The notes under the pieces: generated by a model | Seen by the model: only the letters and a program-made list of their open reading frames with translations | Told to the model about the DNA's origin: nothing | Databases searched by the model: none | IMG/VR virus record: IMGVR_UViG_2914543266_000001 | Span: 6,559 to 70,558 of that record | Length of the DNA: 64,000 nt | Direction: 5' to 3' (one strand) | From: a virus | Translations under genes and position numbers: made by a program | In this document: piece after piece, positions 1,203-47,100 of the stretch | Layout of the letters: each line of letters opens with the position of its first letter | Numbering within the stretch: the stretch's first letter is position 1

Positions 1203-1420
1203 TTCGCCAATGCTTCAAGTGCATCTGCGATTTGCCAACGATATTTGTCTGGCAATAACCAAGGCATTAGCCCTAAGGGGTCGGTGGCCCAGCGTTGATC
1301 TTTAAGTCTGCGCTCTGCGTCGGCAATGGCGTCTTCATGCGATTCATACGAGGGCAGTCCGTTAAGGGTGCGCATCCTGTTCAAGATGGCAAGAGTGGAT
1401 GAGGCTTTAGGAATACTCAC
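1178..1420 (-). CDS. Hypothetical protein
   Basis: 80 aa ORF overlapping the helicase stop codon by 4 nt. Confidence 0.55.
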   Translation of the reverse strand: MSIPKASSTLAILNRMRTLNGLPSYESHEDAIADAERRLKDQRWATDPLGLMPWLLPDKYRWQIADALEALAKWIAPGSW

Positions 1421-3621
1421 GCCGTCACCTCCCCGATCGCGCCTTGGGTCTGCCCCGCCGCCTCACGCTGCAATCGCTCTGCCTTGGCTTTGAGCCAGGT
1501 ATATCGGCCATCACTCTCCCAGCCGTTCATCACCTGCGATCGCCTGCTCGCTGAGGTCTTCGACTTCGCATGCTGCAACTGATCAAAGGTGGTCGCCTCG
1601 ATCAATCGCTGCTCGAACTCCTGCCACCAATCGGGCTTCCCTGGGGTAATCCACGCATGGGTCACAGCGCCGGTGGCATCGCGGCATCCCTGGTCTGGTG
1701 GTGCAGGGCGGTTCAGTACCGGTTCAGCACCTTGGTCCTGCACGGAGCGCGATCGATCGACTGCTACTAAGGACTCTTGGCCCCCATTTGTTAGGGTTTC
1801 AGCCGTTGATTCAGGGCGTGCAGGAGGTACGGCACCTAAATAGTCACGATTCAATTCTTCTTTTTGTTGATCGCCTTCATTTTCTTTGTTTGAAAATTCC
1901 TCGGCTTTTTGGTCTTGTACGTCCTGCACGCCCTGGACAGCCGCCTCAAGTTGCGCCAATTGCTCTGGCAATGTCCGTGCGTCGTAGGGGTATAGGTGAC
2001 CATACTGGGTGGCCCAGGCCCTGAACAACTCAACGCCACCTTCGCCCAGCTTGGAAACGATGCACTCAGGAATGCCGCTATTGCTCTCAAAAAGCCCGTG
2101 ACGGATATTGATCCACACCCATTCGATCGGCACCATCTCACCTCCGATGTGGCGACGATCGACTATGTTCTGGGTCAATATGCTTTTCATCTCAGCTTTC
2201 CAATTGTTCAGAGCATGAGCCCTGACGTTGGCCGCTGCGCAGTAGGCCTTGTAGCAGCTGTAGAGCCAACCCACCTGCACTGGCTGCCGTGGCCCGTGAA
2301 TGTCGGCGGGTTCTAAGCATTCGTTGGCAAAAGCCCACACGCTACTGGTGCTGGCGGCAATGTCGTTGAAATATTGAGCGGCACGTTCGTTGTAGCGTTT
2401 GGGGTTTTTCAGGATTTTGTCGCGCAGTTCCCTATCCATCGACAGCGCCCAGGACACCACATCGGGCACCGACTCCATGAGTTCGTTCTCGAATTGCTCC
2501 GATCGCTGCTCATTTGGGATTGGCTGCGTAAGCACTGGCACCACTCGGCGCTCGAATCCACCGCTTGAACTCGAAGCCATCAGCAGCCCTTTGGCGCTGG
2601 CCACGATGTAACGGGTGTAGTTCACCTCGTTGTCGGCTTTACTGCTGTGCAGGTTGCGGGCGGCTACAGGGCTGCATTCAACCGAGTCGTAGAATGTGGC
2701 CAATCCACTATCTATAAATTCGTTAATGTCTGAGATAGCAACAACCCGGCGACCACTAATGAATTGGCGCACCTTGTCGGGGTCTTTGAAAATGGAAAAG
2801 CTGTTGGCCGCTTGCGTTGACTCACTGCTGAAAATGCTTTGAATCAAGCGAATAAATAAGCCTTTGCCTGAACCGCTCGACCCTTGCAAATGCAAAAACC
2901 GGTGGGGCGCGGTCATGTCTAGCATTAGCGCAATGCAGGCGCGGATGTAGTTATAGTCGCCATCGAAACTCGATTCGATGTAGCGGCGCATCGGCTCAGG
3001 GCATTCGGCCCCTTCGATGTAGTTGTGGGGCACTGAGGCCGTTAGCAGGTTGCCGGGGTCGTGGGGGCTCAGCTTGCCGGTCTTGGTCGATACGGTGCCG
3101 TTTTGGAATGCGAGCAGATCGCGGTTAAAAGTGGTGTCAGTTTTTTTGTAGAGCTTGCCCGCCGCCCATGCCATGGCGTTATTGACGTTCTTGATATGGG
3201 CCAAGGTGCCTTTGCGCTTGCCTTTGCCGTCCACCCAGTAGGCTTTCTCAGCTTCTTGGATGATCGAATGCCTAATTTCGTCATCGTCAATCCGTCTCCA
3301 ATAGCCCAAGCTGGGGTCGTATTCCCTGAAGTGCGACTTCAGCACCTGCACCTGCTTTTGCTCAAAGCACAGGCGAAACAACTCAACTTCTGCTGTGCTG
3401 CCTGCCTGGCATGCGTAGCTTTTGGCGGCGATATCTTCCTGTTGCTGGTCTTTCTCAAACTCGGCGATCTTTTGATCGACGCTGACCTTGGCCATCGTCT
3501 CAATCTTGGCCAGCCTATGTTTGGGCAAGCCCTTTGCTTTACGAGTGATGGATTCCAGAATCCCTTCAAGCCCTGCGTCGCTGACTTTCCAACGGTTTGA
3601 CGTGAATGCTGCTTCTGGCAT
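1417..3621 (-). CDS. P4/D5-family SF3 helicase with C-terminal winged-helix domain
   Basis: D5_N-like LLAFQNGTV..KTGKL.PHDP, Walker A GSSGSGKG, C-terminal VWAFANECL...LYSCYKAYC; start taken as ATG 3621 (ORF track extends to 3684). Confidence 0.9.
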   Translation of the reverse strand: MPEAAFTSNRWKVSDAGLEGILESITRKAKGLPKHRLAKIETMAKVSVDQKIAEFEKDQQQEDIAAKSYACQAGSTAEVELFRLCFEQKQVQVLKSHFREYDPSLGYWRRIDDDEIRHSIIQEAEKAYWVDGKGKRKGTLAHIKNVNNAMAWAAGKLYKKTDTTFNRDLLAFQNGTVSTKTGKLSPHDPGNLLTASVPHNYIEGAECPEPMRRYIESSFDGDYNYIRACIALMLDMTAPHRFLHLQGSSGSGKGLFIRLIQSIFSSESTQAANSFSIFKDPDKVRQFISGRRVVAISDINEFIDSGLATFYDSVECSPVAARNLHSSKADNEVNYTRYIVASAKGLLMASSSSGGFERRVVPVLTQPIPNEQRSEQFENELMESVPDVVSWALSMDRELRDKILKNPKRYNERAAQYFNDIAASTSSVWAFANECLEPADIHGPRQPVQVGWLYSCYKAYCAAANVRAHALNNWKAEMKSILTQNIVDRRHIGGEMVPIEWVWINIRHGLFESNSGIPECIVSKLGEGGVELFRAWATQYGHLYPYDARTLPEQLAQLEAAVQGVQDVQDQKAEEFSNKENEGDQQKEELNRDYLGAVPPARPESTAETLTNGGQESLVAVDRSRSVQDQGAEPVLNRPAPPDQGCRDATGAVTHAWITPGKPDWWQEFEQRLIEATTFDQLQHAKSKTSASRRSQVMNGWESDGRYTWLKAKAERLQREAAGQTQGAIGEVTA
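1812..1935. repeat. Putative replication origin inside the helicase gene: 19-bp inverted repeat around an 86-bp T-rich spacer
   Basis: CAGGGCGTGCAGGAGGTAC (1812-1830) vs reverse complement of 1917-1935 (CAGGGCGTGCAGGACGTAC), 18/19 match. Confidence 0.65.
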
Positions 3622-3623
3622 AG

Positions 3624-4478
3624 CTAAACCAACCCATATTGTTTGCGGTGAGCATCGACCTTGGCCTGCATAACCTTCACCCAAGCATTGGCCTGGTTGA
3701 GCTTGTGCACCGACTCGTAGGCGGCCTTGATTGAGTCGGCATAGTTCTGTTCATGACTTTTGCCGCCGAACATTCCGGCGAGGTCAAACCCATTAACCTT
3801 GTCTAGCCATGCTTCTAAAAATTCGCTGGGGCTCATGGCACTCTTCAACACCTGACGGTATGCAGCGACCTTTGAAACATCAGTGCGATCGCCGTGGATC
3901 TTGAAAAATTCACAGGCCCCACCCGTTGGGTAATCGGGCATCGTAGGGAATAGTGCGATCGATCCTTGAGTCCAGATTGCGGCACTGATCAATGCGGTCA
4001 TGACAGTGTGTTTCCTCCACCCGTCAGAGTCAAAAACGATTGTCATTTTGCAGTCGCGAGGCACTGAGTAAGGGATAGAATCAACGCCGACAAATGCCGC
4101 AGTGGTCACTCCTAACAGTGTCGGCATTGCCGCATCTTTCCAGCCCTCGGTGCCGACTTCACAATCGCTCAGCCTGACATTGGGGCGAACCCATGCGGCG
4201 GTGGCGGTGCCCCATGGGCCGAGGTACTTTTTGGTTTGGCCGTTTTCGTCTACAGGTTTGTCGAGGCGTATTTGGCCGTAGCCTTGAGAGAACGGAAAGT
4301 AAAGCCCTGAGTGATTGCCAAGCTTCATCAGCTTTGATTCGGAGGGAGAGAGGGATCTAACGCCCCATCCCTCACAGATGGCAATTTGCTCTGGCGTAAA
4401 GCCTTCATCAAGTAAATGGTTGTAATGGGCATCGGCGAGCTTGGTTGTGGATGCAACTGCGGTGAACGTAGCAACCAT
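3624..4478 (-). CDS. DUF3854-like / Toprim primase domain protein
   Basis: GTEGWKDA...IVFDSDG Toprim-type motifs; stop codon 2 nt before the helicase ATG. Confidence 0.8.
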   Translation of the reverse strand: MVATFTAVASTTKLADAHYNHLLDEGFTPEQIAICEGWGVRSLSPSESKLMKLGNHSGLYFPFSQGYGQIRLDKPVDENGQTKKYLGPWGTATAAWVRPNVRLSDCEVGTEGWKDAAMPTLLGVTTAAFVGVDSIPYSVPRDCKMTIVFDSDGWRKHTVMTALISAAIWTQGSIALFPTMPDYPTGGACEFFKIHGDRTDVSKVAAYRQVLKSAMSPSEFLEAWLDKVNGFDLAGMFGGKSHEQNYADSIKAAYESVHKLNQANAWVKVMQAKVDAHRKQYGLV

Positions 4479-6461: not shown

Positions 6462-7703
6462 TTACCAGTCGCCCGCAGCAACTAGCGACTGTTGCTCAGC
6501 AACGGGCTCAACAGCCACCGCCTGCGCTACTGATTCGCCTTCCCATGCTGTTACCGTCACAGGGCCACCATCAGTGGGGATGACGCCCTGCACCTTCAGG
6601 TTGGTATGGTCGATCGCGCCGATGTGCTCGGCGGGGATAATCAGGGGAACGCTGCCTTTCTCGGTCATGAACAGGGCCGTCGCGCTGCCGTCTGTGTTCA
6701 GGTTCAGCGTGGCAGCATCGATGAAGCCTGCGCCGTTGTAGGCCACGTCGCCATTGGGCAGCGTGTCAGAGTCAGCAGCACCCATGCCTCGGTTAGGAGC
6801 AGGGAATGCCTCAAACTCTAAGAACAGGTCGCGAATGACTTGGCCTAGTTCACTGGTCTTAGGGATCATGTAATCTGACCAGCGGCCACCCGTCACCTGC
6901 ACCTTGCGATCGTTCTGATCCAGCGTGGCCGTCTTGCCAGTTTTGTCGGCCCCATTCACAGGCTGATGGCGGGCAACAATACAGGTGAATGCTGATTTAT
7001 CGGCATCCTTGGGGATGTGATAACCAACGGTCATTGGCATGGCGATGTACGCCGCAGCGCTTTTGCTGAATGCAGCGCCTGAGGCTTTCTTCCCAGCAAC
7101 CCGTGAAGCTTCGCGGTAAGCTGCCCCTAACTCTTTTTGAAACGCCTGCACTTCACTGTTCAGCGACACCCGGAACGCACCCTTGGCCGTCAGCTGCAAC
7201 GGGCGATCGTGCAAAGGTTGGCCATCTTCGCCCAGAAACATCAGCAAAAACCGCTTAACTTGGCGATAGGGGCAGTCTTTGTCGTCTTTACTATCCTCAA
7301 ACAACTGCCCCCACTTGGTACGGCTATTGCTCTCCCAGGCCACGCCGAGAAAACGCCAGCGATCGTTAACCTTCTCTTGCACCTCAATTTGGCTAGAGTG
7401 CAGCACAACCAAGTTGATCTTTTGGGCAACCCAGCCATGCTCGATCGTTGCAGTTGACTGAGGGTGAATGGGGATGTCCTCGCCCTCGGTCCAGTTAACG
7501 TCGGGACGAAAGCCTACCGCTTGGGCATTGTCGGCGCTGATCGCAATCCCGAACCCTAAAGGATTTTTGTCTAGTAGCTTGGCATTCTTGCCGCCAGCGT
7601 TGATGATCTGAACGTAGGGTAATGAACCCGACTCTTCTAGATCGTCCTGAAACTGGTCAAAGAGATCGTCGTCTTGAACTGCCAAAGAACCGAAGTTAAA
7701 CAT
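6462..7703 (-). CDS. Cyanobacterial DUF5895-like protein, possible ssDNA-binding/annealing factor
   Basis: LPYVQIINAG...GIAISADNAQAVGF N-terminus; lies upstream of the helicases. Confidence 0.5.
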   Translation of the reverse strand: MFNFGSLAVQDDDLFDQFQDDLEESGSLPYVQIINAGGKNAKLLDKNPLGFGIAISADNAQAVGFRPDVNWTEGEDIPIHPQSTATIEHGWVAQKINLVVLHSSQIEVQEKVNDRWRFLGVAWESNSRTKWGQLFEDSKDDKDCPYRQVKRFLLMFLGEDGQPLHDRPLQLTAKGAFRVSLNSEVQAFQKELGAAYREASRVAGKKASGAAFSKSAAAYIAMPMTVGYHIPKDADKSAFTCIVARHQPVNGADKTGKTATLDQNDRKVQVTGGRWSDYMIPKTSELGQVIRDLFLEFEAFPAPNRGMGAADSDTLPNGDVAYNGAGFIDAATLNLNTDGSATALFMTEKGSVPLIIPAEHIGAIDHTNLKVQGVIPTDGGPVTVTAWEGESVAQAVAVEPVAEQQSLVAAGDW

Positions 7704-8202: not shown

Positions 8203-8919
8203 ATGGCAGTAGATCGGGAATATGTAGCGAGGTTGAAGCAGTGGGCCGACGAGGGCGTTGATCGATGTCAAGGGTTAAACGCCTTTGCCCGTGAAACTGC
8301 GACTCGCCTGGAACGTCATGGCCTCAAAGGGATTGCATCTGGAATGATCTCGCGGTGGCGGCGAGAAGAAATATTTGAGCCGGTTGACGATCGCACCCTG
8401 ACGCGGATCGGACTTCTAAAAAATTTCAGCGCCAACCATGACGAGGCAAGGCGGCTTGCCCGTGAATGGCTTGAGGGCGATATAAAGAAAAGCGATGATA
8501 TCCCCACTGCTCAGTACCCCGTATGGCACGGCGTTGATGCGGTGCCTTACGAGCTGCTCAAGGCAGACGAATTGGTAGAACTCGCAGCGAGGTCAGTTGG
8601 CCGCCTGGGGGAGTTGGTGCAGCAGGAGCGATCGCACGACGCGGAAGAACCGCCCGCACCGCAGCCTGAGCCCAACACCGTTACGTCGCTATTGCTGGGC
8701 AAAATGCAGCTGACTAAGCTCGACGTGGAGGGGCTAGCGATCAAACTAGGCGTTGAGCCCGATCGCGCCGCTGCAATATTGGAAGGGCATTTAATGAACT
8801 GCGAAGAATGTCGGGCCGCCGCCGACTTCACGGGGATGACGGTTGAGACCCTAGTTGACTGGGGTGGGTGCATTGAGTCGGCACTACTGCCAGTTCAACC
8901 CGTAAATCCGGCAGGCTAG
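8203..8919 (+). CDS. CI-like repressor (HTH)
   Basis: HTH-like segments (e.g. DVEGLAIKLGVEPDRAAAILEG); divergent switch layout. Confidence 0.55.
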   Translation: MAVDREYVARLKQWADEGVDRCQGLNAFARETATRLERHGLKGIASGMISRWRREEIFEPVDDRTLTRIGLLKNFSANHDEARRLAREWLEGDIKKSDDIPTAQYPVWHGVDAVPYELLKADELVELAARSVGRLGELVQQERSHDAEEPPAPQPEPNTVTSLLLGKMQLTKLDVEGLAIKLGVEPDRAAAILEGHLMNCEECRAAADFTGMTVETLVDWGGCIESALLPVQPVNPAG

Positions 8920-9688: not shown

Positions 9689-10300
9689 ATGGCCAACATG
9701 AAGCCCGCCAAAAGCAAAGATTTTCGCACCCAGGCCCGGAATGCCAACGGGCACACCGATGAAGGTATGGCGATGCTTGAGTCATCGATCGAAGAGGTTG
9801 GCTGGTTTGGCGCGATCAGTGTTGCCGCTGATGGTGAGGTGTTTGACGGCAGCGCTCGCCAAGAGGTGGTGTCTAAGGTATTGCCCGAGGATGCGGTGGT
9901 ATATGACTCCGATGGCACAAAGCCTATCTACATACGGCGGGTGGATATTCCCAACGCTCAAGACCCTAGGGCAGTAAAGGCAGGGATTTTAGCGAATCGT
10001 GTGGCCGAAAAGAACCTTTCTTGGGAGTCAGTCAACCTCGATGACATCTCGCAGGATGTTGATTTAGGCGATTGGTTTGCTGAGGAAGTGCTAGCCGATC
10101 TGATCGATGAGCTAGACACCACTACCAGCCGCTTCACCGATGACCCGGACAAAGAGACCCCGTCGATTGGGGAGGGCGGCACACCTCTGGCGATCGTGCT
10201 GTCCTCGTCGGAGTTGAAAGAGTGGCAGGTGATGAAGGAAGTCGCCGGCACGCAGTCGGATAAGACAGCATTTTTGAAACTTATGCGAGGTGAGATCTAG
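9689..10300 (+). CDS. ParB/Srx-like N-terminal domain protein
   Basis: NANGHTDEGMAMLESSIEEVGWFGAISVAADGEVFDGSAR resembles phage ParB-like proteins found near terminases. Confidence 0.7.
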   Translation: MANMKPAKSKDFRTQARNANGHTDEGMAMLESSIEEVGWFGAISVAADGEVFDGSARQEVVSKVLPEDAVVYDSDGTKPIYIRRVDIPNAQDPRAVKAGILANRVAEKNLSWESVNLDDISQDVDLGDWFAEEVLADLIDELDTTTSRFTDDPDKETPSIGEGGTPLAIVLSSSELKEWQVMKEVAGTQSDKTAFLKLMRGEI

Positions 10301-10380
10301 GCTGGCAGATACATCAATTGAATTCCGGGCTTGGAACGCTATATCTTGGATAGAATTGAGCAAACCGTAAGGTATAGCGA

Positions 10381-10938
10381 ATGGCCTCTGGCGCGGTGCG
10401 GCAAAAATTGGGAACAAGGTTTGGCGCAGGCGGAGGCGGCGCAACTAGAAGTGCCCAAAATAGTGGTAAGGACGGCAAAAACACAGCAGATAATTCATCC
10501 TTTACAGAAAATCGATTTGCTAGCATTAGGCCTTCGGATGCTGATGTTGACGGATTCGTTAAGGCGTATGCATCAAAGAACGGCGTAGAAGCAACGCGCA
10601 CTGCTGTCCTTAAGTCAATCATGAAAAGTGATTTCCCTGCTCAGTCACTAGAACCAAAACGTTCTTGGAGTCGGCAACGCAACGAGGAAGCAGGGAAGAG
10701 AACAAATGCGTTACTCACTGATCATCTCAAGATATTTCATGAGGCTAGATCCATCTCTCGTGTAGCTGGAGTCGGTGCAGTACCTAAGACAAAAGCCGAA
10801 TTTAATCGATCGCGCCGCCAGATTGTAGCCAAAGCTCACCCCGACGCTGGGGGCACTGCGAGGGGCTTCGCTGCGGCTCAAACGCGGTTGAGGTCGCTTG
10901 AACGACGACTGAAAGATTTGGGGATTCCAGATAACTAG
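10381..10938 (+). CDS. Basic protein with MASxAVRxKxGxxFG leader and C-terminal J-domain-like HPD motif
   Basis: MASGAVRQKLGTRFGAGGGG; RRQIVAKAHPDAGG. Confidence 0.75.
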   Translation: MASGAVRQKLGTRFGAGGGGATRSAQNSGKDGKNTADNSSFTENRFASIRPSDADVDGFVKAYASKNGVEATRTAVLKSIMKSDFPAQSLEPKRSWSRQRNEEAGKRTNALLTDHLKIFHEARSISRVAGVGAVPKTKAEFNRSRRQIVAKAHPDAGGTARGFAAAQTRLRSLERRLKDLGIPDN

Positions 10939-41080: not shown

Positions 41081-41587
41081 ATGGCAAACGATCGCAGCCT
41101 CGGCGTCCAAATCGACGAAAAAGAACTTGCCAGCATTGTGCGCCAGCTCAACCAAACCGCGATCGACATTGGGCAGCCCGCGATCGCCCGTGAGATTCGG
41201 CAGGTGGTGCTCGCTGATGTTGATGAGCGCTTTGCCTCGGCACCCTCGGTGGAGTCAGGCGGCGTGGTCTACGGCGGGGTGTACTGGCCGCCGCTGAGCC
41301 CTAGCTATTTGGCTCGGAGACCAGAGCGATCGGGCGGACAACTGCTGCGCGATACCGGTGAGCTAGAGCAATCATTCACAGGTAATGGGGCGGTGTTCCA
41401 GTCAGGCGCTGATGAGGTAGTGGTGGGAACCTCCCTACCCAAGGCGCGCGGGCTGCACGGTGGGGTGTTCTGGGGTGTGTCGAAACCTGATCTGGCTAGA
41501 CCGATCCTGTTCGTGCACGATGCTCTAGCTGATGACGTAGTGGAGGCGATCGCGCTGGCCTTTGATAGGTTGCAGCGGAAGTCGTAG
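41081..41587 (+). CDS. Virion morphogenesis protein (Mu gpG / P2 S-like)
   Basis: WPPLSPSY...LLRDTGELEQS...VVVGT...ARPIL. Confidence 0.85.
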   Translation: MANDRSLGVQIDEKELASIVRQLNQTAIDIGQPAIAREIRQVVLADVDERFASAPSVESGGVVYGGVYWPPLSPSYLARRPERSGGQLLRDTGELEQSFTGNGAVFQSGADEVVVGTSLPKARGLHGGVFWGVSKPDLARPILFVHDALADDVVEAIALAFDRLQRKS

Positions 41588-41590
41588 GAA

Positions 41591-41724
41591 GGGTGCAGGG
41601 AGTGCGAGGGGTGCAGGGGTCGAAATGCGATTTTTTTCGTGTGATCGCATTCCATTTTTTTGGAGAGCACACACCCCTTTTTTTTGAGCTTTTTTGGCCT
41701 GCACCCCCTGCACCCTTTGCACCC
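41591..41724 (+). repeat. Dispersed palindromic element, copy 4 (core orientation T)
   Basis: Same arms; begins 4 nt after the gpG stop codon. Confidence 0.95.
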
Positions 41725-41888
41725 TATTAAGGGACAGTGACAAGACCGTGCGATCGCGTAGCCGGTGGCGGGCATATTCCTGATGTGGGCAGCAGTGCCC
41801 GAATGATGATGGTTCGATGAATGCTGAGCAAAGCATTCGGAACCTAGAAGGCTGCGATGTAACTATTGGAATTATTAAAGGTCTAACT

Positions 41889-42296
41889 ATGTTGAAGCGA
41901 TTGATCTTGCCTCTAGCCTTAGCCGCCACAACCGCCGCCGTGTTGCCAGCTCATGCCCAGGTCACTGACTGCGGCATGTCTGTGATGGTGCTGCCCAATG
42001 GCGAGTGCTTGGACATGGACTACATCACGGTGCTGGGTGCTAGCCGTCGCAACGTTGGACAGGCCAATGCCATCTATAACGAACTGTTTGACACCAACGT
42101 CAGGATCGAGATGATCTACAGCGAGTTCCCTCAGCTAGACAATGAAACTGAGGAAGAACGCCGGGAGCGCTACGAGTCGCTTTTGCGGGTTAGAGATGGC
42201 AGGGACGCAGTAGCCGCATCAGGGCAGAGCGTCGAAGATAAGCTATTCCCTCTGCATGTGCGGGCAATGAATGCTGTTGGCCGAGCCTACCGTTAG
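41889..42296 (+). CDS. Secreted hypothetical protein
   Basis: Signal peptide MLKRLILPLALAATTAAVLPAHA; Cys pair. Confidence 0.65.
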   Translation: MLKRLILPLALAATTAAVLPAHAQVTDCGMSVMVLPNGECLDMDYITVLGASRRNVGQANAIYNELFDTNVRIEMIYSEFPQLDNETEEERRERYESLLRVRDGRDAVAASGQSVEDKLFPLHVRAMNAVGRAYR

Positions 42297-42361
42297 CGAC
42301 CGCGGACTCAAAGCAAAGCCCCTGGCAGAGTTGTTCTACCAGGGGCTTTGCTTTAGAAGGA

Positions 42362-43300
42362 TTAGCCCTGAGCATTCATTGAGCTAGATTCCATTGCCGC
42401 TAAATCGCTGTCTAATGTGCGGCGATCGTAAGGGTAGAGTGGTCCGTACTGCCTAGCCCACTGCTGGAACTCAGCGACTCCGCCATCATCTAGTCGAGTA
42501 GGGATGATTTTGGGTGCTCCATTGTCAAAGCAGAACAGGCCAAACCGTACATCAATCCATACCCATTCAATTGGAACCATCTCGCCGCCAACATGCCGAC
42601 GCCGCACCACGTTAAAGGGCAATATTGATTTGACTTCGCTTTTCCAGTTGTTTTCGCCAATGGGCAGTCGTCCGATCGCCACGCAGTATGCTTTGTAGCA
42701 GGAATACAGCCAATCGATCGGCACAGGTTGCCGTGCCCCCTTGATGTCGGCAGGCTTCAAGCACTCGTCAATGAATGCCCAAGTGCTGCTGACATCGGGC
42801 TTAGGCGTCGGCACTGTCTCGGGCTGCGGGGCCGCGGCGATCGGTGGACTGCTATGTCCAAGCGCCGCTGACACCAGCGCCGGGTCAATCAACGCGAGTT
42901 TGTAGGCAAGGTCTAAGGATCGTTCTCTAGATCGCGATAGTTCTAGCTCTAGGCAGAAAGGCGCTAGGTCATCACGATGGGCGGGAAGTGATTGTTGCAT
43001 CTGTCGCTCACACTCTAGGAAGTATTTGCGAATCTCCCTGCCCTTGTCTGTGCCTGCCATCATGCCCAGTGACTTGAAACAGTCAACAGTCAGAATGATG
43101 TGTTCGCTAGGACGCCCACCAGTAGAGCTTTTTACCCCTTTGGGTAGGAAATCAAAACCACTCTCAAAATTGTTTTTTAGCTTCTCTGTGGCCTTTTGCT
43201 TAGTACAGTAACCGAGCCACTGCCAAGCATCGTCAATATCCACAGGAAACTGGTCTTCAGATTGAACCAGTGCCAACGCCAAATCATGCGAAAATTCCAT
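42362..43300 (-). CDS. AntA/AntB-like antirepressor fused to a copy of the helicase winged-helix domain
   Basis: [18 protein letters not shown]...FESGFDF...[37 protein letters not shown]; C-terminal 126 aa 79/126 identical to helicase 1969-2346. Confidence 0.88.
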
Positions 43301-43376
43301 CAGGCTTTCCTTTGTGTTTACTACGGGGATAGGTCTAAGGCGATCGCTTTGCTTTCGAGGGCAGCGATCGCCTCCA

Positions 43377-43601
43377 CTAACTACTGACATCAACACTTTG
43401 CCCTACCCACTCCAGCAGCTCTCCTGGCTGCACTTCGTAGGCATTGCAAATCTTGTCAAGCACCGATGATCGCGGCAACTGTTCAGGCTTGTTGTACAGG
43501 TCGTAGGCGGTGCGCTGGGCGATCCCAACATCCTGTCTAAACTTGTACGGCGTAATACCTCGAGCATCAACGAACTCCTTGATCCTGTTTTTTACCGCCA
43601 T
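43377..43601 (-). CDS. XRE/Cro-type HTH regulator
   Basis: [22 protein letters not shown]...[18 protein letters not shown]. Confidence 0.88.
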
Positions 43602-43628
43602 TCCATGGCCTTCCTCGGCATTACTATC

Positions 43629-43644
43629 ATGCTAATAGTAGCAT
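43629..43644. promoter_or_regulatory. Palindromic operator ATGCTA-ATAG-TAGCAT
   Basis: Perfect 6-bp arms just upstream of the XRE gene. Confidence 0.5.
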
Positions 43645-43722
43645 TAATCTCGGAATGGTCGCAAATTATCTCTTGAATGATACGGCGGTATGATTGGGGC
43701 ATCGTTACTCCCACGGAATGCC

Positions 43723-44223
43723 ATGCTGCCCAATGCCCTGCGTGATCGCCCGATGGAGGCACTGGCCGAGCACTTGAAGGCATCACTGAACGATCGCCTG
43801 TGGGCCATCTTCGACGAGGCCGATCAGCCCAGGGAGGATGCCTGCCGGGTAGCGGTACCCTATCGCCCCGATTTGCTGAGCACTAAGGTCTATCCACTGA
43901 TCAGCTGCTACCGCACCGGGCGGGTGAACGTGAGCGAGGATAGGTGGCGGGGTGAGCTGCGCTGGCACATGCCGATGGCTACCAACCAGCAGTCTGAGCA
44001 ACAGCACTACCTTTACTGGGTAGAGAAATCTATGGTTGATATTCTTGACTTGTATCAGGACGCTGAAGAGCCCTGCATCATTGTTGACATGTCGGTGCTG
44101 CGATCGACCCTGGGATATTTGACAGTGACCAGGGGCAACCCGCAGACGGCTCTATCATTCCCTACAGTGCAAATAGATTTTGAGTTTATAGATCTAGAAA
44201 GCAAGTATGGGGTTGGCAGCTAA
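43723..44223 (+). CDS. Probable tail completion/terminator protein
   Basis: 166 aa; YPLISCYRTG...VQIDFEF pattern; own -10 box TATGAT at 43689. Confidence 0.5.
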   Translation: MLPNALRDRPMEALAEHLKASLNDRLWAIFDEADQPREDACRVAVPYRPDLLSTKVYPLISCYRTGRVNVSEDRWRGELRWHMPMATNQQSEQQHYLYWVEKSMVDILDLYQDAEEPCIIVDMSVLRSTLGYLTVTRGNPQTALSFPTVQIDFEFIDLESKYGVGS

Positions 44224-44303
44224 TCAATATCCTTGCTGTGATTGAATTGTGACTCTTTTGAACTTTAGTGCCGCCTACCCATGGCGGCTTTTTATTGGCC
44301 ATA

Positions 44304-44437
44304 GGGTGCAGGGGGTGCGAGGGGTGCAGGGGTCGAAATGCGATTTTTTTCGAGTGATCGCATTCCATTTTTTTCGCTCGCACACACTCCCTTTTTTTTG
44401 CGTTTCAAGGGTCGCACCCCATGCACCCCTCGCACCC
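44304..44437 (+). repeat. Dispersed palindromic element, copy 5 (core orientation T)
   Basis: Same arms; between a terminator (44270-44294) and the MuF promoter. Confidence 0.95.
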
Positions 44438-44478
44438 ACGATACGGCGGTATGATTGGGGCACCGTACCGCGATCGAT

Positions 44479-47100
44479 ATGGACTCTGTATTTACCCCGC
44501 ATCTACGCTTTGCCGACGAGCTACTCATCCCGATCGCAGAGATTGAAGCCGCGCAGCAGCAAGTAGAGGACTCAGCCACCGCCGCGATCATGGCGGCCAT
44601 TGAGGAGGAGACCCAGGGGCTATTGCAGCGGGTTGAGCAGGCGCTACTCGACGGCGATGTGGGTGCGATCAACATGGCGCGATGGCCACTGGCGGGGCGG
44701 CTAGCGCGAGCGATCGTGGGGCTATGGGGCGGTGGCTTTGACGCGGGCGCGAGGCAGGGGCTTGAGGAGATGCGTGCGGCGGTGGAGGAGGTGCGATCGT
44801 TCGTGCACCGCTTTGCCCTGGCTGATGACGCGCGGCGGGTGCTGACACTGGAGCCACAGCAGTTAGTCAACAGCGATGCAGTAGACGCCGTGGTGGGCAG
44901 GGCGAACTTGCTGGCGGGTGATTTCAGCGACGATGTGTTTACGAGGTTGAAGGGTGATCTGACTGCTGCGATCGTGCCTCAGCCTGGGACGGGCGAACCG
45001 ATCGCGCGGCCAGAGTTGCTGCGGCGGATTCAGAGCACCTTGGGCGTGGCAAAGGGCAGGGCCACGACGATCGCACGCACCGAGACAACCTATGCCTACA
45101 ACACGGGGCGCATGGCGAGTTTCAACGACTCGGAGCTCGTTGACTACGTGCGCGTGATCGCAATTCGTGACCGGCGCACCTCTGACGTGTGCCAGTCCAG
45201 AGACGGGTTGGTCGTGCCCAAGGGTGAACTGGCGACGATTGGGGGCCCGCCTCCGTGGCACTACCGCTGCCGAACCACCATTGGGGCGGTGATGTCGCAG
45301 TTGTCGCGGTTCAAGGCGATGGTCGCAGACCCGGCAAATGACCCGGCGAACCGTGCGATCGCGCCTTTGCCGAAGGGATGGCGCACGACTGGCGAGGCAA
45401 TTAAATCTGAGGCCAGCGGGAGGGTAACGGCACAGACAGAGCCCAAGGCGATCAAGGCCAATATCATGAGCCCCATTGATCGCAGGGCCCCAGGGGCTGC
45501 CCAGCAAGCTGAGAAACGACAGCAGCAGGTTGGGAAACTCTACGACAAACTCGCGACAGGGCGGCTAAAGCCGGGGGATGGCGACGACGATCGCACTGTG
45601 AAGGGCAAGATGGGCGCACTTAATGCCCTTAGCGATGCCCAGAACCCCAAGGTGGGTCTAGCCGCTACCCGCAACGACGCGGGCGAATACACCGGGTTCT
45701 TGAGCTTTAAGGCGGGGCGGCGTGAGGTAGAAATCGAGAACCTTGGCACAGACGGCACGCAGCCAGGCTCAGGGCGTGCGCTGTTTCGGCAGGTGGCGGA
45801 ATACGCAGCCAGGGAGGGGAAGGGCCTCGTTGTCGCGCCTGTACCTGATGCGATTGGGTTTTACGAACGCATGGGGATGAGGAAGGTTAGCGAAGGGGCG
45901 TTGGAACTTAGCCCTGAAGAGGTGCAAGCGTTGATTCAGGGCAAGGCAGCCCAGCAAAGTCAAGGGAGCAAAAAAGATGTTCAGTTTGATTCGTGGACTG
46001 ATAGGCCGGGACCGCAAGCTGCGAGTGGCATCATCACAAGAGCTAAGCGGCGTAAGGCAATGATGGACACAGAGTTGCCCATCATTGATCAAGAGCTTGA
46101 TAGGTTAGATTCTGTGATTGAAGATCACAGGGTTAGATACGATGAATTCAGGGCCAATAATCCGGGGTTATCGCGGGAAGAACGCCTTAATTCCCCTATA
46201 GCAAAGGAGGGTGAGAAGCTTTATGCAGAGCGCACCGAGTTAGAGAAGCGAATTGAAAAGATTAGCAACGATGGCACAGCTTCTGAAGGCATCCTTGCTG
46301 GGGTTGGGTCTATTCCTGCCAAGATAAGATCTACGCTAGAAAAGCGTGATCGCGCCGTGAGAAAGGATGCAGCCGAAGCTCAAGCTGAAATCAAAAGACT
46401 TGAACTAGAGATAGCATTGTCCATTGATCGAGATGGATTTGGCGGTGGCGATGTGGAAGGCCGTATCGCTAGACGTAGCCGAATGAATGAATTGATCACT
46501 GAGAACAAGCTAAGGTTTGGCGACAAAGATGGAATAGCCGCAATGGCAGATCTGAGAGATCAACTGCTACGACGAGGGACGGGGCAAGTCGTAAATCCAA
46601 GCTTTGATCTGCCGTCTAGACTGAAACCACTACAGCAAGATTTTGCGGATACATTCAACGAGTTTGTTCAACTAACTAATGGCAGGGGTGGCCGTAGCCT
46701 TAAGAAGGTTGCTTATACAGGCGATCGCGCTTCAGCCAGCCAGAACGGATATTTGAACGTTGGGGCCAGCTCCAATGGGGTTGATCGTCCTGTTATGTTT
46801 CATGAGATGGGGCATCACGTTGAGTTTGAGTCAAAAACTCTTAGGGACAGAGCTAACGCCATCATCAGATCCCGCTCAACAGCAGAAGCCCCACAACAAT
46901 TGCCGGGGTACGAAAAGGGAGAGGTAGCCTTCCCTAACCACTGGAGCAGCGCGTACACTGCTAAGTCGTACTCTGATAAGAGTACAGAGGTTTATTCTAT
47001 GGGCTTACAGCACTTTACCTCTCCGCAAGATATGTGGCGGCTTTATTTAGAGGATAAAGAGCATTTTTTTATCACGATGGGGATTTTTGCGGATGATTAA
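44479..47100 (+). CDS. MuF (SPP1 gp7-like) head morphogenesis protein with GNAT and zincin metallopeptidase extensions
   Basis: RATTIARTETTYAYNTG...DRRTSDVC...PPWHYRCRT; GTQPGSGRALF...AIGFYERMGM; MFHEMGHHVE. Confidence 0.88.
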   Translation: MDSVFTPHLRFADELLIPIAEIEAAQQQVEDSATAAIMAAIEEETQGLLQRVEQALLDGDVGAINMARWPLAGRLARAIVGLWGGGFDAGARQGLEEMRAAVEEVRSFVHRFALADDARRVLTLEPQQLVNSDAVDAVVGRANLLAGDFSDDVFTRLKGDLTAAIVPQPGTGEPIARPELLRRIQSTLGVAKGRATTIARTETTYAYNTGRMASFNDSELVDYVRVIAIRDRRTSDVCQSRDGLVVPKGELATIGGPPPWHYRCRTTIGAVMSQLSRFKAMVADPANDPANRAIAPLPKGWRTTGEAIKSEASGRVTAQTEPKAIKANIMSPIDRRAPGAAQQAEKRQQQVGKLYDKLATGRLKPGDGDDDRTVKGKMGALNALSDAQNPKVGLAATRNDAGEYTGFLSFKAGRREVEIENLGTDGTQPGSGRALFRQVAEYAAREGKGLVVAPVPDAIGFYERMGMRKVSEGALELSPEEVQALIQGKAAQQSQGSKKDVQFDSWTDRPGPQAASGIITRAKRRKAMMDTELPIIDQELDRLDSVIEDHRVRYDEFRANNPGLSREERLNSPIAKEGEKLYAERTELEKRIEKISNDGTASEGILAGVGSIPAKIRSTLEKRDRAVRKDAAEAQAEIKRLELEIALSIDRDGFGGGDVEGRIARRSRMNELITENKLRFGDKDGIAAMADLRDQLLRRGTGQVVNPSFDLPSRLKPLQQDFADTFNEFVQLTNGRGGRSLKKVAYTGDRASASQNGYLNVGASSNGVDRPVMFHEMGHHVEFESKTLRDRANAIIRSRSTAEAPQQLPGYEKGEVAFPNHWSSAYTAKSYSDKSTEVYSMGLQHFTSPQDMWRLYLEDKEHFFITMGIFADD

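Follow-up and report, generated by a model that had tools for sequence, protein, structure and literature searches.

An AntA-type head joined to a helicase-derived winged helix: a putative regulator in a cyanobacterial prophage

What use would a phage have for a protein that carries the winged helix of a replicative helicase, lacks the ATPase and begins like an antirepressor? The question is raised by a minus-strand gene at 42362-43300 of the window, the 64,000-nt stretch of DNA analysed here (G000:C23:36404-100403, within a 6.16-Mb genome of 45 contigs). The nearest protein relatives of the window originate from filamentous cyanobacteria, and Planktothrix phage PaV-LD is the only phage record with DNA similarity to it. 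The window is read as a prophage of a cyanobacterial host; a weak integrase-like match, the sole one found, lies ~5.5 kb before it. Its plus strand carries the terminase and virion genes, and a replication module on the minus strand encodes a DUF5895 protein, an SF1 helicase, a 284-aa primase-like protein and a D5_N/SF3 helicase. The original prediction described the product of 42362-43300 as an ATPase-less origin binder. The fusion of an AntA-type head to a paralogue of the helicase winged helix, with no ATPase, holds up, whereas the term antirepressor survives as a nominal label.

The gene, its modules and its neighbours

The gene, the modules that it encodes and the elements around it are as follows:

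41593-41724, plus strand: dispersed palindromic element 4 (repeat family D1), ~640 bp beyond the stop of the gene
42310-42354, no strand: hairpin with a 20-bp stem between convergent genes, arms 95% complementary, 5-nt loop
42362-43300, minus strand: complete AntA-head/winged-helix gene, 312 aa (ATG 43300, stop 42362-42364)
42368-42793, minus strand: C-terminal winged-helix domain, residues 170-311, a paralogue of the post-ATPase domain of the helicase
42794-42862, minus strand: Pro/Ala-rich disordered spacer, residues 147-169 (pLDDT below 50 for model residues 148-167)
42863-42988, minus strand: long helical adaptor, residues 105-146 (AF2 helices 85-104, 106-138 and 140-146)
42989-43300, minus strand: N-terminal AntA/Bro-network domain, residues 1-104 (Pfam, PHROG, AF2 winged HTH)
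43338-43373, minus strand: hairpin in the spacer between the XRE gene and 42362-43300, two GCGATCGC (HIP1-type) palindromes, 11-nt arms 100% complementary
43377-43601, minus strand: XRE/Cro-type HTH regulator gene, 74 aa (HTH_26, E 4e-14)
44306-44437, plus strand: dispersed palindromic element 5, ~700 bp upstream of the XRE start

The start at ATG 43300 is fixed by the homologues P0003, P0006 and P0012, which open with the same MEFSH, and the upstream GTG at 43396 (ORF 42362-43396) was rejected on that ground. From this start the protein runs through an AntA-type head, a long helix, a Pro-rich spacer and the helicase-derived winged helix. The public record for the locus, P0004, is a 212-aa product that begins at an internal Met at window ~43000 and is missing the AntA-type head. 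This gene call looks truncated, its start Met being Val in the orthologue P0003. A genuine 212-aa isoform from the internal start was rejected on the same substitution, and because a nearby promoter-like match is no better than shuffles. The short public call might also be taken to mean that the gene is a decaying, functionless relic of a recombination accident. This is very hard to credit, as the frame is intact over 312 aa, the Met of the truncated call is not shared by P0003, the full architecture is kept in two orthologues from other samples and the substitution pattern, given below, shows purifying selection.

The XRE regulator gene, with which the original prediction had 42362-43300 co-transcribed, lies upstream on the same strand. 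The two genes are separated by 76 nt with no terminator predicted between them, an arrangement that makes their co-transcription plausible. The hairpin at 43338-43373 within this spacer was rejected as a terminator (RNA fold z-score only -1.84, no U-tract) and its significance is doubtful. A palindromic operator of its own had also been ascribed to the XRE gene; this was not recovered, there being no inverted repeat of at least 8 nt in 43550-43760, where only 6-7-nt symmetries can be picked out by eye. At the far end, the hairpin at 42310-42354 has T/A runs on both sides and is likely a bidirectional terminator that closes the cassette. The cassette is oriented with the XRE gene first and this hairpin last, opposite to the virion genes, and the whole locus is flanked by palindromic elements 4 and 5 as predicted. 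An operon set against the virion genes and closed by a strong hairpin is the typical layout of a prophage-expressed 'moron'. The layout of the cassette fits prophage expression, and hence origin silencing or the exclusion of relatives.

The surroundings hold some further features. A 159-aa plus-strand ORF at 41817-42296, within the element-flanked cassette, has no family match and converges on 42362-43300 at the hairpin 42310-42354; a signal peptide is suspected by eye. A 27-nt direct repeat (43679-43705 and 44440-44466, 96% identical) brackets the ORF 43690-44223 together with element 5. One copy lies over the start of ORF 43690 and the other past element 5 at the start of a head-morphogenesis gene, and the pair may be a recombination or insertion scar. 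An Rfam scan of 41400-44600 gave nothing near gathering score. Among sequencing runs, no RNA run was listed as matching, and a single DNA run, from a sediment metagenome, contained 9% of the sampled words.

The N-terminus had been described as AntA/AntB-like. The single protein matches AntA (PF08346) weakly (E 1.6e-3, 19.4-21.1 bits, cut-off 27). Of the aligned head homologues, 55/60 reach AntA with E values no higher than 0.01 (best 4.1e-6), and the head itself is matched by PHROG anti-repressor families at 4e-10. AF2 blocks over residues 1-100 have a mean pLDDT of 75-94, against 77.7 for the whole model, and the fold of the head matches the DdrC N-domain (Z 6.7), the pSK1 Par DNA-binding domain (Z 5.1) and Mbp1 (Z 4.3). 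A profile search of solved structures with the head alignment gave no matches. As modelled, the head would be a winged-HTH module resembling known DNA-binding domains, a likeness that by itself tells neither for nor against the inactivation of a repressor, and Pfam and PHROG scans found no nuclease family (T5orf172/GIY-YIG) in it. AntA and Phage_pRha are listed among the Bro-network Pfam families that swap partners (PMC10111431). The head homologues found here likewise carry varied tails, among them ANT (P0057, P0094), P63C (P0087) and unknown ones. The word antirepressor is thus a family label for the head, its activity putative, because the head models as a Bro-network winged HTH and is replaced by Rha in one orthologue.

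These features could be accommodated by an ordinary antirepressor or Bro-type regulator, in which the head would act on a repressor or a promoter and the winged helix would be one of many interchangeable oligomerisation or targeting modules, unconnected with replication. The head recurs in more than 100 homologues whose tails are unrelated (KilAC/ANT, P63C, unknown domains), and many of these bear the source label 'phage anti-repressor protein'. The succession of a small HTH gene and an ant-like gene in the late region also recalls P22 immI (mnt-arc-ant), where a small DNA-binding regulator gene and an ant-family gene likewise stand among late genes. The C-terminal module here is, however, a helicase-derived winged helix, and neither P22_AR_N nor P22_AR_C has a Pfam match in the protein. 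Late transcription regulated through the dispersed elements, which lie in intergenic gaps of the morphogenesis region, is a possible variant. We judge an ordinary regulator to be unlikely. The modelled head is like known DNA-binding domains and we know of no repressor-binding function for it. In P0005, the head is swapped for Rha while the adaptor and the winged helix are kept, so it is the tail that is the conserved, defining part of the orthologue group. In addition, the winged helix of a related phage, L005, has been spun off without any head.

The adaptor is common to orthologues with another head (P0005) or another tail (P0006, P0012), and its LELELS-SRER segment is conserved across P0003, P0005, P0006 and P0012. 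Judged from the model, residues 105-146 probably form a coiled coil.

Ancestry, fold and distribution of the tail

The helicase gene contributes three features to the comparison:

1417-3684, minus strand: D5_N + SF3 helicase gene, likely start ATG 3621, the donor lineage of the winged helix
1812-1935, no strand: origin-like palindrome in the helicase gene, arms of 9-bp GTGCAGGAC-type units, 66-nt A/T-rich spacer
1924-2349, minus strand: winged-helix segment of the helicase, after the ATPase, paralogous to 42368-42793

The helicase matches D5_N in Pfam (E 3.6e-11) and PHROG DNA primase families down to 8e-27. Its start is likely ATG 3621, as the homologue P0123 begins at the position of this internal Met. 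It consists of D5_N, SF3 and winged helix, and in P4 alpha, too, a winged helix follows the SF3 helicase. Unlike in P4 alpha, the putative primase is here a separate 284-aa protein. This protein (3624-4478, minus strand), encoded upstream of the helicase, has no Pfam match. It resembles the N-terminal part of P0132, a fused homologue of 996 aa (34% identity, E 2e-38), which makes it probable that primase and helicase are split in this phage. A 238-aa plus-strand ORF at 8203-8919, divergent from the minus-strand replication operon, has no Pfam match and could, judged by its position, be a lysogeny or early regulator.

The tail of the 312-aa protein aligns without gaps to the post-ATPase region of the helicase, with 83/142 residues identical (58%, BLASTP E 1e-56; 42368-42793 against 1924-2349). 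The count of 79/126 gapless identities first given for 42413-42790 and 1969-2346 proved exact on translating both minus-strand coordinate sets. The two winged-helix segments are 57.5% identical in DNA, and 0.65, 0.70 and 0.37 identical at first, second and third codon positions. This pattern, with third positions near saturation and first and second positions not, marks the duplication as old and shows purifying selection on both copies. Outside the domain, in-register identity is at chance level (0.2-0.4) in 9/10 30-nt blocks. The similarity stops within 1907-1935, the near arm of the inverted repeat 1812-1840/1907-1935, in agreement with the prediction that the copy stops just before the origin-like segment. 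Only these two copies of the winged helix are found in the 6.16-Mb genome.

Conservation between the paralogues is uneven. The predicted HTH core and wing (H2, H3, beta2-beta3) are 33/42 identical, and the probable DNA-contacting surface is therefore the best-kept part. The H2-H3 turn (0/7), the beta-extension (9/22) and the tail segment of the domain (4/14) have diverged, and both domains are slightly acidic overall (net charge -1 and -3), a point against DNA recognition. An alternative to DNA recognition is that the copied winged helix pairs with that of the helicase, altering its dimerisation or loading and so setting the replication level. The P4 protein Cnr has reportedly been proposed to act on the origin-binding domain of P4 alpha in this way, via winged-helix heterodimerisation. 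Paralogues at 58% identity, and at 96% in L005, are expected to retain any self-association surface. A family-specific extension after the wing, with an invariant G111 and a nearly invariant F115 (numbering of alignment A1), is also kept in long and short forms. However, the best-conserved segments are the HTH core and wing and not an obvious separate interface. On balance we think a Cnr-like partner improbable, but such a heterodimer would be a serious alternative and the main rival of site recognition; it would not be exclusive of competition for DNA sites.

The assignment of the tail to a fold draws on several comparisons. Against Pox_D5 (PF03288) the 312-aa protein scores 16.8-18 bits (cut-off 21.4), and 17/17 aligned tail-family members match at E 0.05 or below (best 1.3e-7). 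The tail profile matches PDB 7ola, titled 'DNA primase', over residues 705-751 of 797 (E 1.4e-3), and also the RFX5 DNA-binding domain. In the AF2 model (pLDDT 84), a winged helix is followed by a beta-extension and two helices. Comparison by VIA-align with 48,161 representative chains gave matches at Z of at least 5 to RFX5 (Z 6.7), RFX1 (Z 6.6) and P4 1ka8 (Z 6.6; 83 of 100 residues, rmsd 3.9, identity 17%), a Z of 6-7 being middling for that aligner. The ASFV PrimPol C-terminus (Z 4.9) and then Orc/Cdc6 winged helices come next. Foldseek searches of the PDB with the tail and head models returned no match at E 0.001 or below. In the ESM Atlas, the shape neighbours of the tail are D5_N/DUF5906/Pox_D5 primase-helicases. 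The model thus suggests a winged helix of the P4 origin-binding-domain type at a middling Z, an assignment supported by the agreement of position, family matches and Atlas shape neighbours.

The tail subfamily of the window protein is rare. A whole-protein query retrieved >260 proteins with the same head and other tails (KilAC/ANT, P63C, unknown), and the full architecture in only two others, P0003 (AntA head, 71% identical) and P0005 (Rha head, 49%), which are full-length orthologues from other samples. Among 5.8 billion proteins, a tail-only search found, at similar size, P0003, P0005 and the window's own record and no more. When 1.84 billion representatives were searched exhaustively with the tail, 13 proteins came up, and six of these (503-996 aa) are helicases. 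Most short winged-helix matches were rejected as helicase fragments (P0124-P0126 and P0130 begin within helicase-domain sequence), and P0131 was set aside because it starts 43 nt from its contig end. Wherever the domain turned up among 400 other genomes of the phylum, it did so as a single copy in a long ORF. No short ORF with the domain was found there with the subfamily profile or the Pfam model, every match falling in an ORF of at least 424 aa, in a survey whose sensitivity is limited in that the Pfam model missed the window's own winged-helix copies.

A search for further AntA + D5-wHTH fusions, which the original prediction had suggested, yielded P0003, the Rha-headed P0005 and a distant AntA + D5-like winged-helix protein, P0085 (hhalign probability 92.5%). 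The ESM Atlas adds clusters of about 230-295 aa annotated as Bro-N+Pox_D5 or ORF6N+Pox_D5, and a 154-aa cluster with Pox_D5 alone. The architecture is therefore less unusual than was implied, and the Bro-N/ORF6N+Pox_D5 class is already in databases. No functional description of that architecture was found.

In the winged-helix tree, the fused copies P0001 and P0003 (AntA heads) and P0005 (Rha head) form one clade (94/96), nested in a 96/99 clade with the window's helicase and the helicase P0123. This nesting indicates a single duplication from this helicase lineage and a later swap of the head. In L003, an unrelated HTH_3 gene stands 76 nt upstream of P0005, the same position as the window's XRE gene. 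No homology could be detected among the XRE genes that adjoin the window's gene, adjoin P0005 and open the replication module of L005; only gene order is common to the three loci. In L004, the gene that precedes P0003 gave no HTH match. A 151-aa ORF directly upstream of P0003 (L004:724-1179) shows a weak resemblance to GIY-YIG (E 0.034), which is not significant, and that identity was rejected.

Palindromes of the helicase gene and their copies

A palindrome lies directly after the winged-helix coding segment in 4/4 helicase genes with DNA, those of the window (1812-1935), L005 (7215-7335), L006 (4155-4275) and L020 (1724-1856). The arms consist of two or three 9-bp RTGCAGG-type units, the A/T-rich spacer measures 66-87 nt, and the palindrome is overprinted on the peptide (V/M)Q(G/D)(V/M)Q of the helicase proteins. 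The dispersed elements 4 and 5 align with these embedded palindromes and have the same layout. Five such 132-nt elements lie in the window and a sixth just past its end (C23:102448-102582); outside contig C23, none is found in the 6.16-Mb genome. Base composition predicts about 12 occurrences of GTGCAGG, whereas 46 are present, about 20 of them in the elements and 4 within 1701-1929. A similar palindrome lies in L003, 555 bp upstream of the XRE/Rha-winged-helix operon, and in both L005 and L006 the embedded palindrome has a second copy in an intergenic position. The TGCAGG core of the iterons is common to phages whose winged helices are only about 35% identical, so that another factor may be what reads the motif. 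It may also be that the dispersed elements are terminators or RNA structures rather than protein-binding sites.

L005 provides a further case. Its contig has the same replication-module synteny as the window. The helicase encoded there shares its winged helix with a 171-aa protein, P0128, at 96% protein and 94% DNA identity (segments 6798-7200 and 10064-10466, 94% nt). The 134-bp palindrome embedded in the helicase gene has been duplicated as well (7215-7348 and 9783-9916, 91% nt), and the copies of domain and palindrome stand in permuted order. The palindrome copy lies 80 bp upstream of P0128 and adjoins a near-consensus promoter, TTGACG-17-TACAAT. Judged by these identities, the L005 event is a second, independent and recent detachment of the helicase winged helix. 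The conservation of the palindrome in four helicase genes and the duplication of both domain and palindrome in L005 strengthen the link to origin-like palindromes. In L006, the palindrome is duplicated without a copy of the winged helix.

The L005 copy is placed in an early/replication operon, co-oriented with its genes, and not in a lysogeny-type cassette. This position would fit a role of P0128 in lytic replication at least as well as one in exclusion. It would also suit a positive accessory of the initiator, which would mark palindromes as second sites resembling P4 crr, recruit or bridge the helicase, and stimulate replication or couple it to packaging. P4 replication requires both ori and crr, and several iteron clusters are present per genome here, including the second intergenic palindromes of L005 and L006. 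We nonetheless regard such a role as quite improbable for the window protein, whose gene is transcribed opposite to all of its neighbours under an XRE-type regulator. L006 also has its second palindrome with no winged-helix copy, so the extra protein would be dispensable for whatever that palindrome does.

The reading that we prefer, held tentatively and just short of even confidence, is that the protein, without an ATPase of its own, binds the iteron palindromes of the helicase and modulates the use of the origin. It would be a three-module phage regulator composed of an AntA-type winged-HTH head, a probably dimerising helical adaptor and a helicase-derived winged helix. The tail would keep recognising the DNA sites of the helicase, namely the palindromes of RTGCAGG units, one in the helicase gene and six dispersed. 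This is the most economical reading because the HTH core and wing are kept and the domain and palindrome were duplicated together in L005. Having no ATPase, the protein would occupy the palindromes and modulate, most likely restrain, helicase loading; whether the origin is inhibited or activated is a guess. As a result, the origin of the prophage would be kept quiet or the replication of incoming relatives blocked. The interchangeable head would serve as an effector or bridge, and expression of the gene would be under the control of the upstream XRE protein.

Known systems and significance

Comparable arrangements have been described elsewhere. In P4, too, iterons are clustered at two or more sites, and a small protein regulates the winged helix of the initiator in trans. 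The window's putative regulator differs from Cnr in that its tail is genuinely paralogous to the helicase domain and is joined to a Bro-network head. The role of cnr in P4 has been reported (PMC8628076). In ICP1, an initiator-derived DNA-binding domain directs Odn to a replication origin with iterons (PMC8263062), and the window protein also carries a predicted DNA-binding domain of initiator derivation. The borrowed domain of Odn comes from the RepA of a parasite and is fused to an origin-cutting nuclease, whereas the donor here is the phage's own helicase lineage and no nuclease family is detected in the head. The Bro-network clusters of the Atlas resemble the window protein in joining a Bro-N or ORF6N head to a Pox_D5 tail, the head being AntA in the window and Rha in P0005. 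These clusters are automatic annotations from other phyla, whereas the tail of the window protein is traceable to a resident helicase.

The independent recurrence in L005 and the co-duplicated palindrome are new here and are the most interesting points. They raise a wider possibility, which we hold to be doubtful, that phages of this cyanobacterial group repeatedly detach the putative origin-recognition winged helix from their SF3 helicase and, along with palindrome copies, turn it into bare or Bro-headed trans-acting proteins. This would be an undescribed system of initiator decoys and decoy sites for control of a phage's own replication or for exclusion, a paralogous counterpart of P4 Cnr/crr.

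For phages with P4/D5-type helicase initiators, the regulation of origin firing is known in detail only for P4. If the preferred reading is true, a regulator has been made by copying the initiator's own DNA-recognition module, beside copies of the origin-like palindrome. A function would then be explained for the unannotated 'BRO family + Pox_D5' and stand-alone Pox_D5 proteins of phages, with the Bro-network heads serving as swappable effectors attached to a targeting domain. Cyanobacterial prophages are very poorly characterised, and for them the locus offers a candidate origin and a candidate system of replication control or superinfection exclusion.
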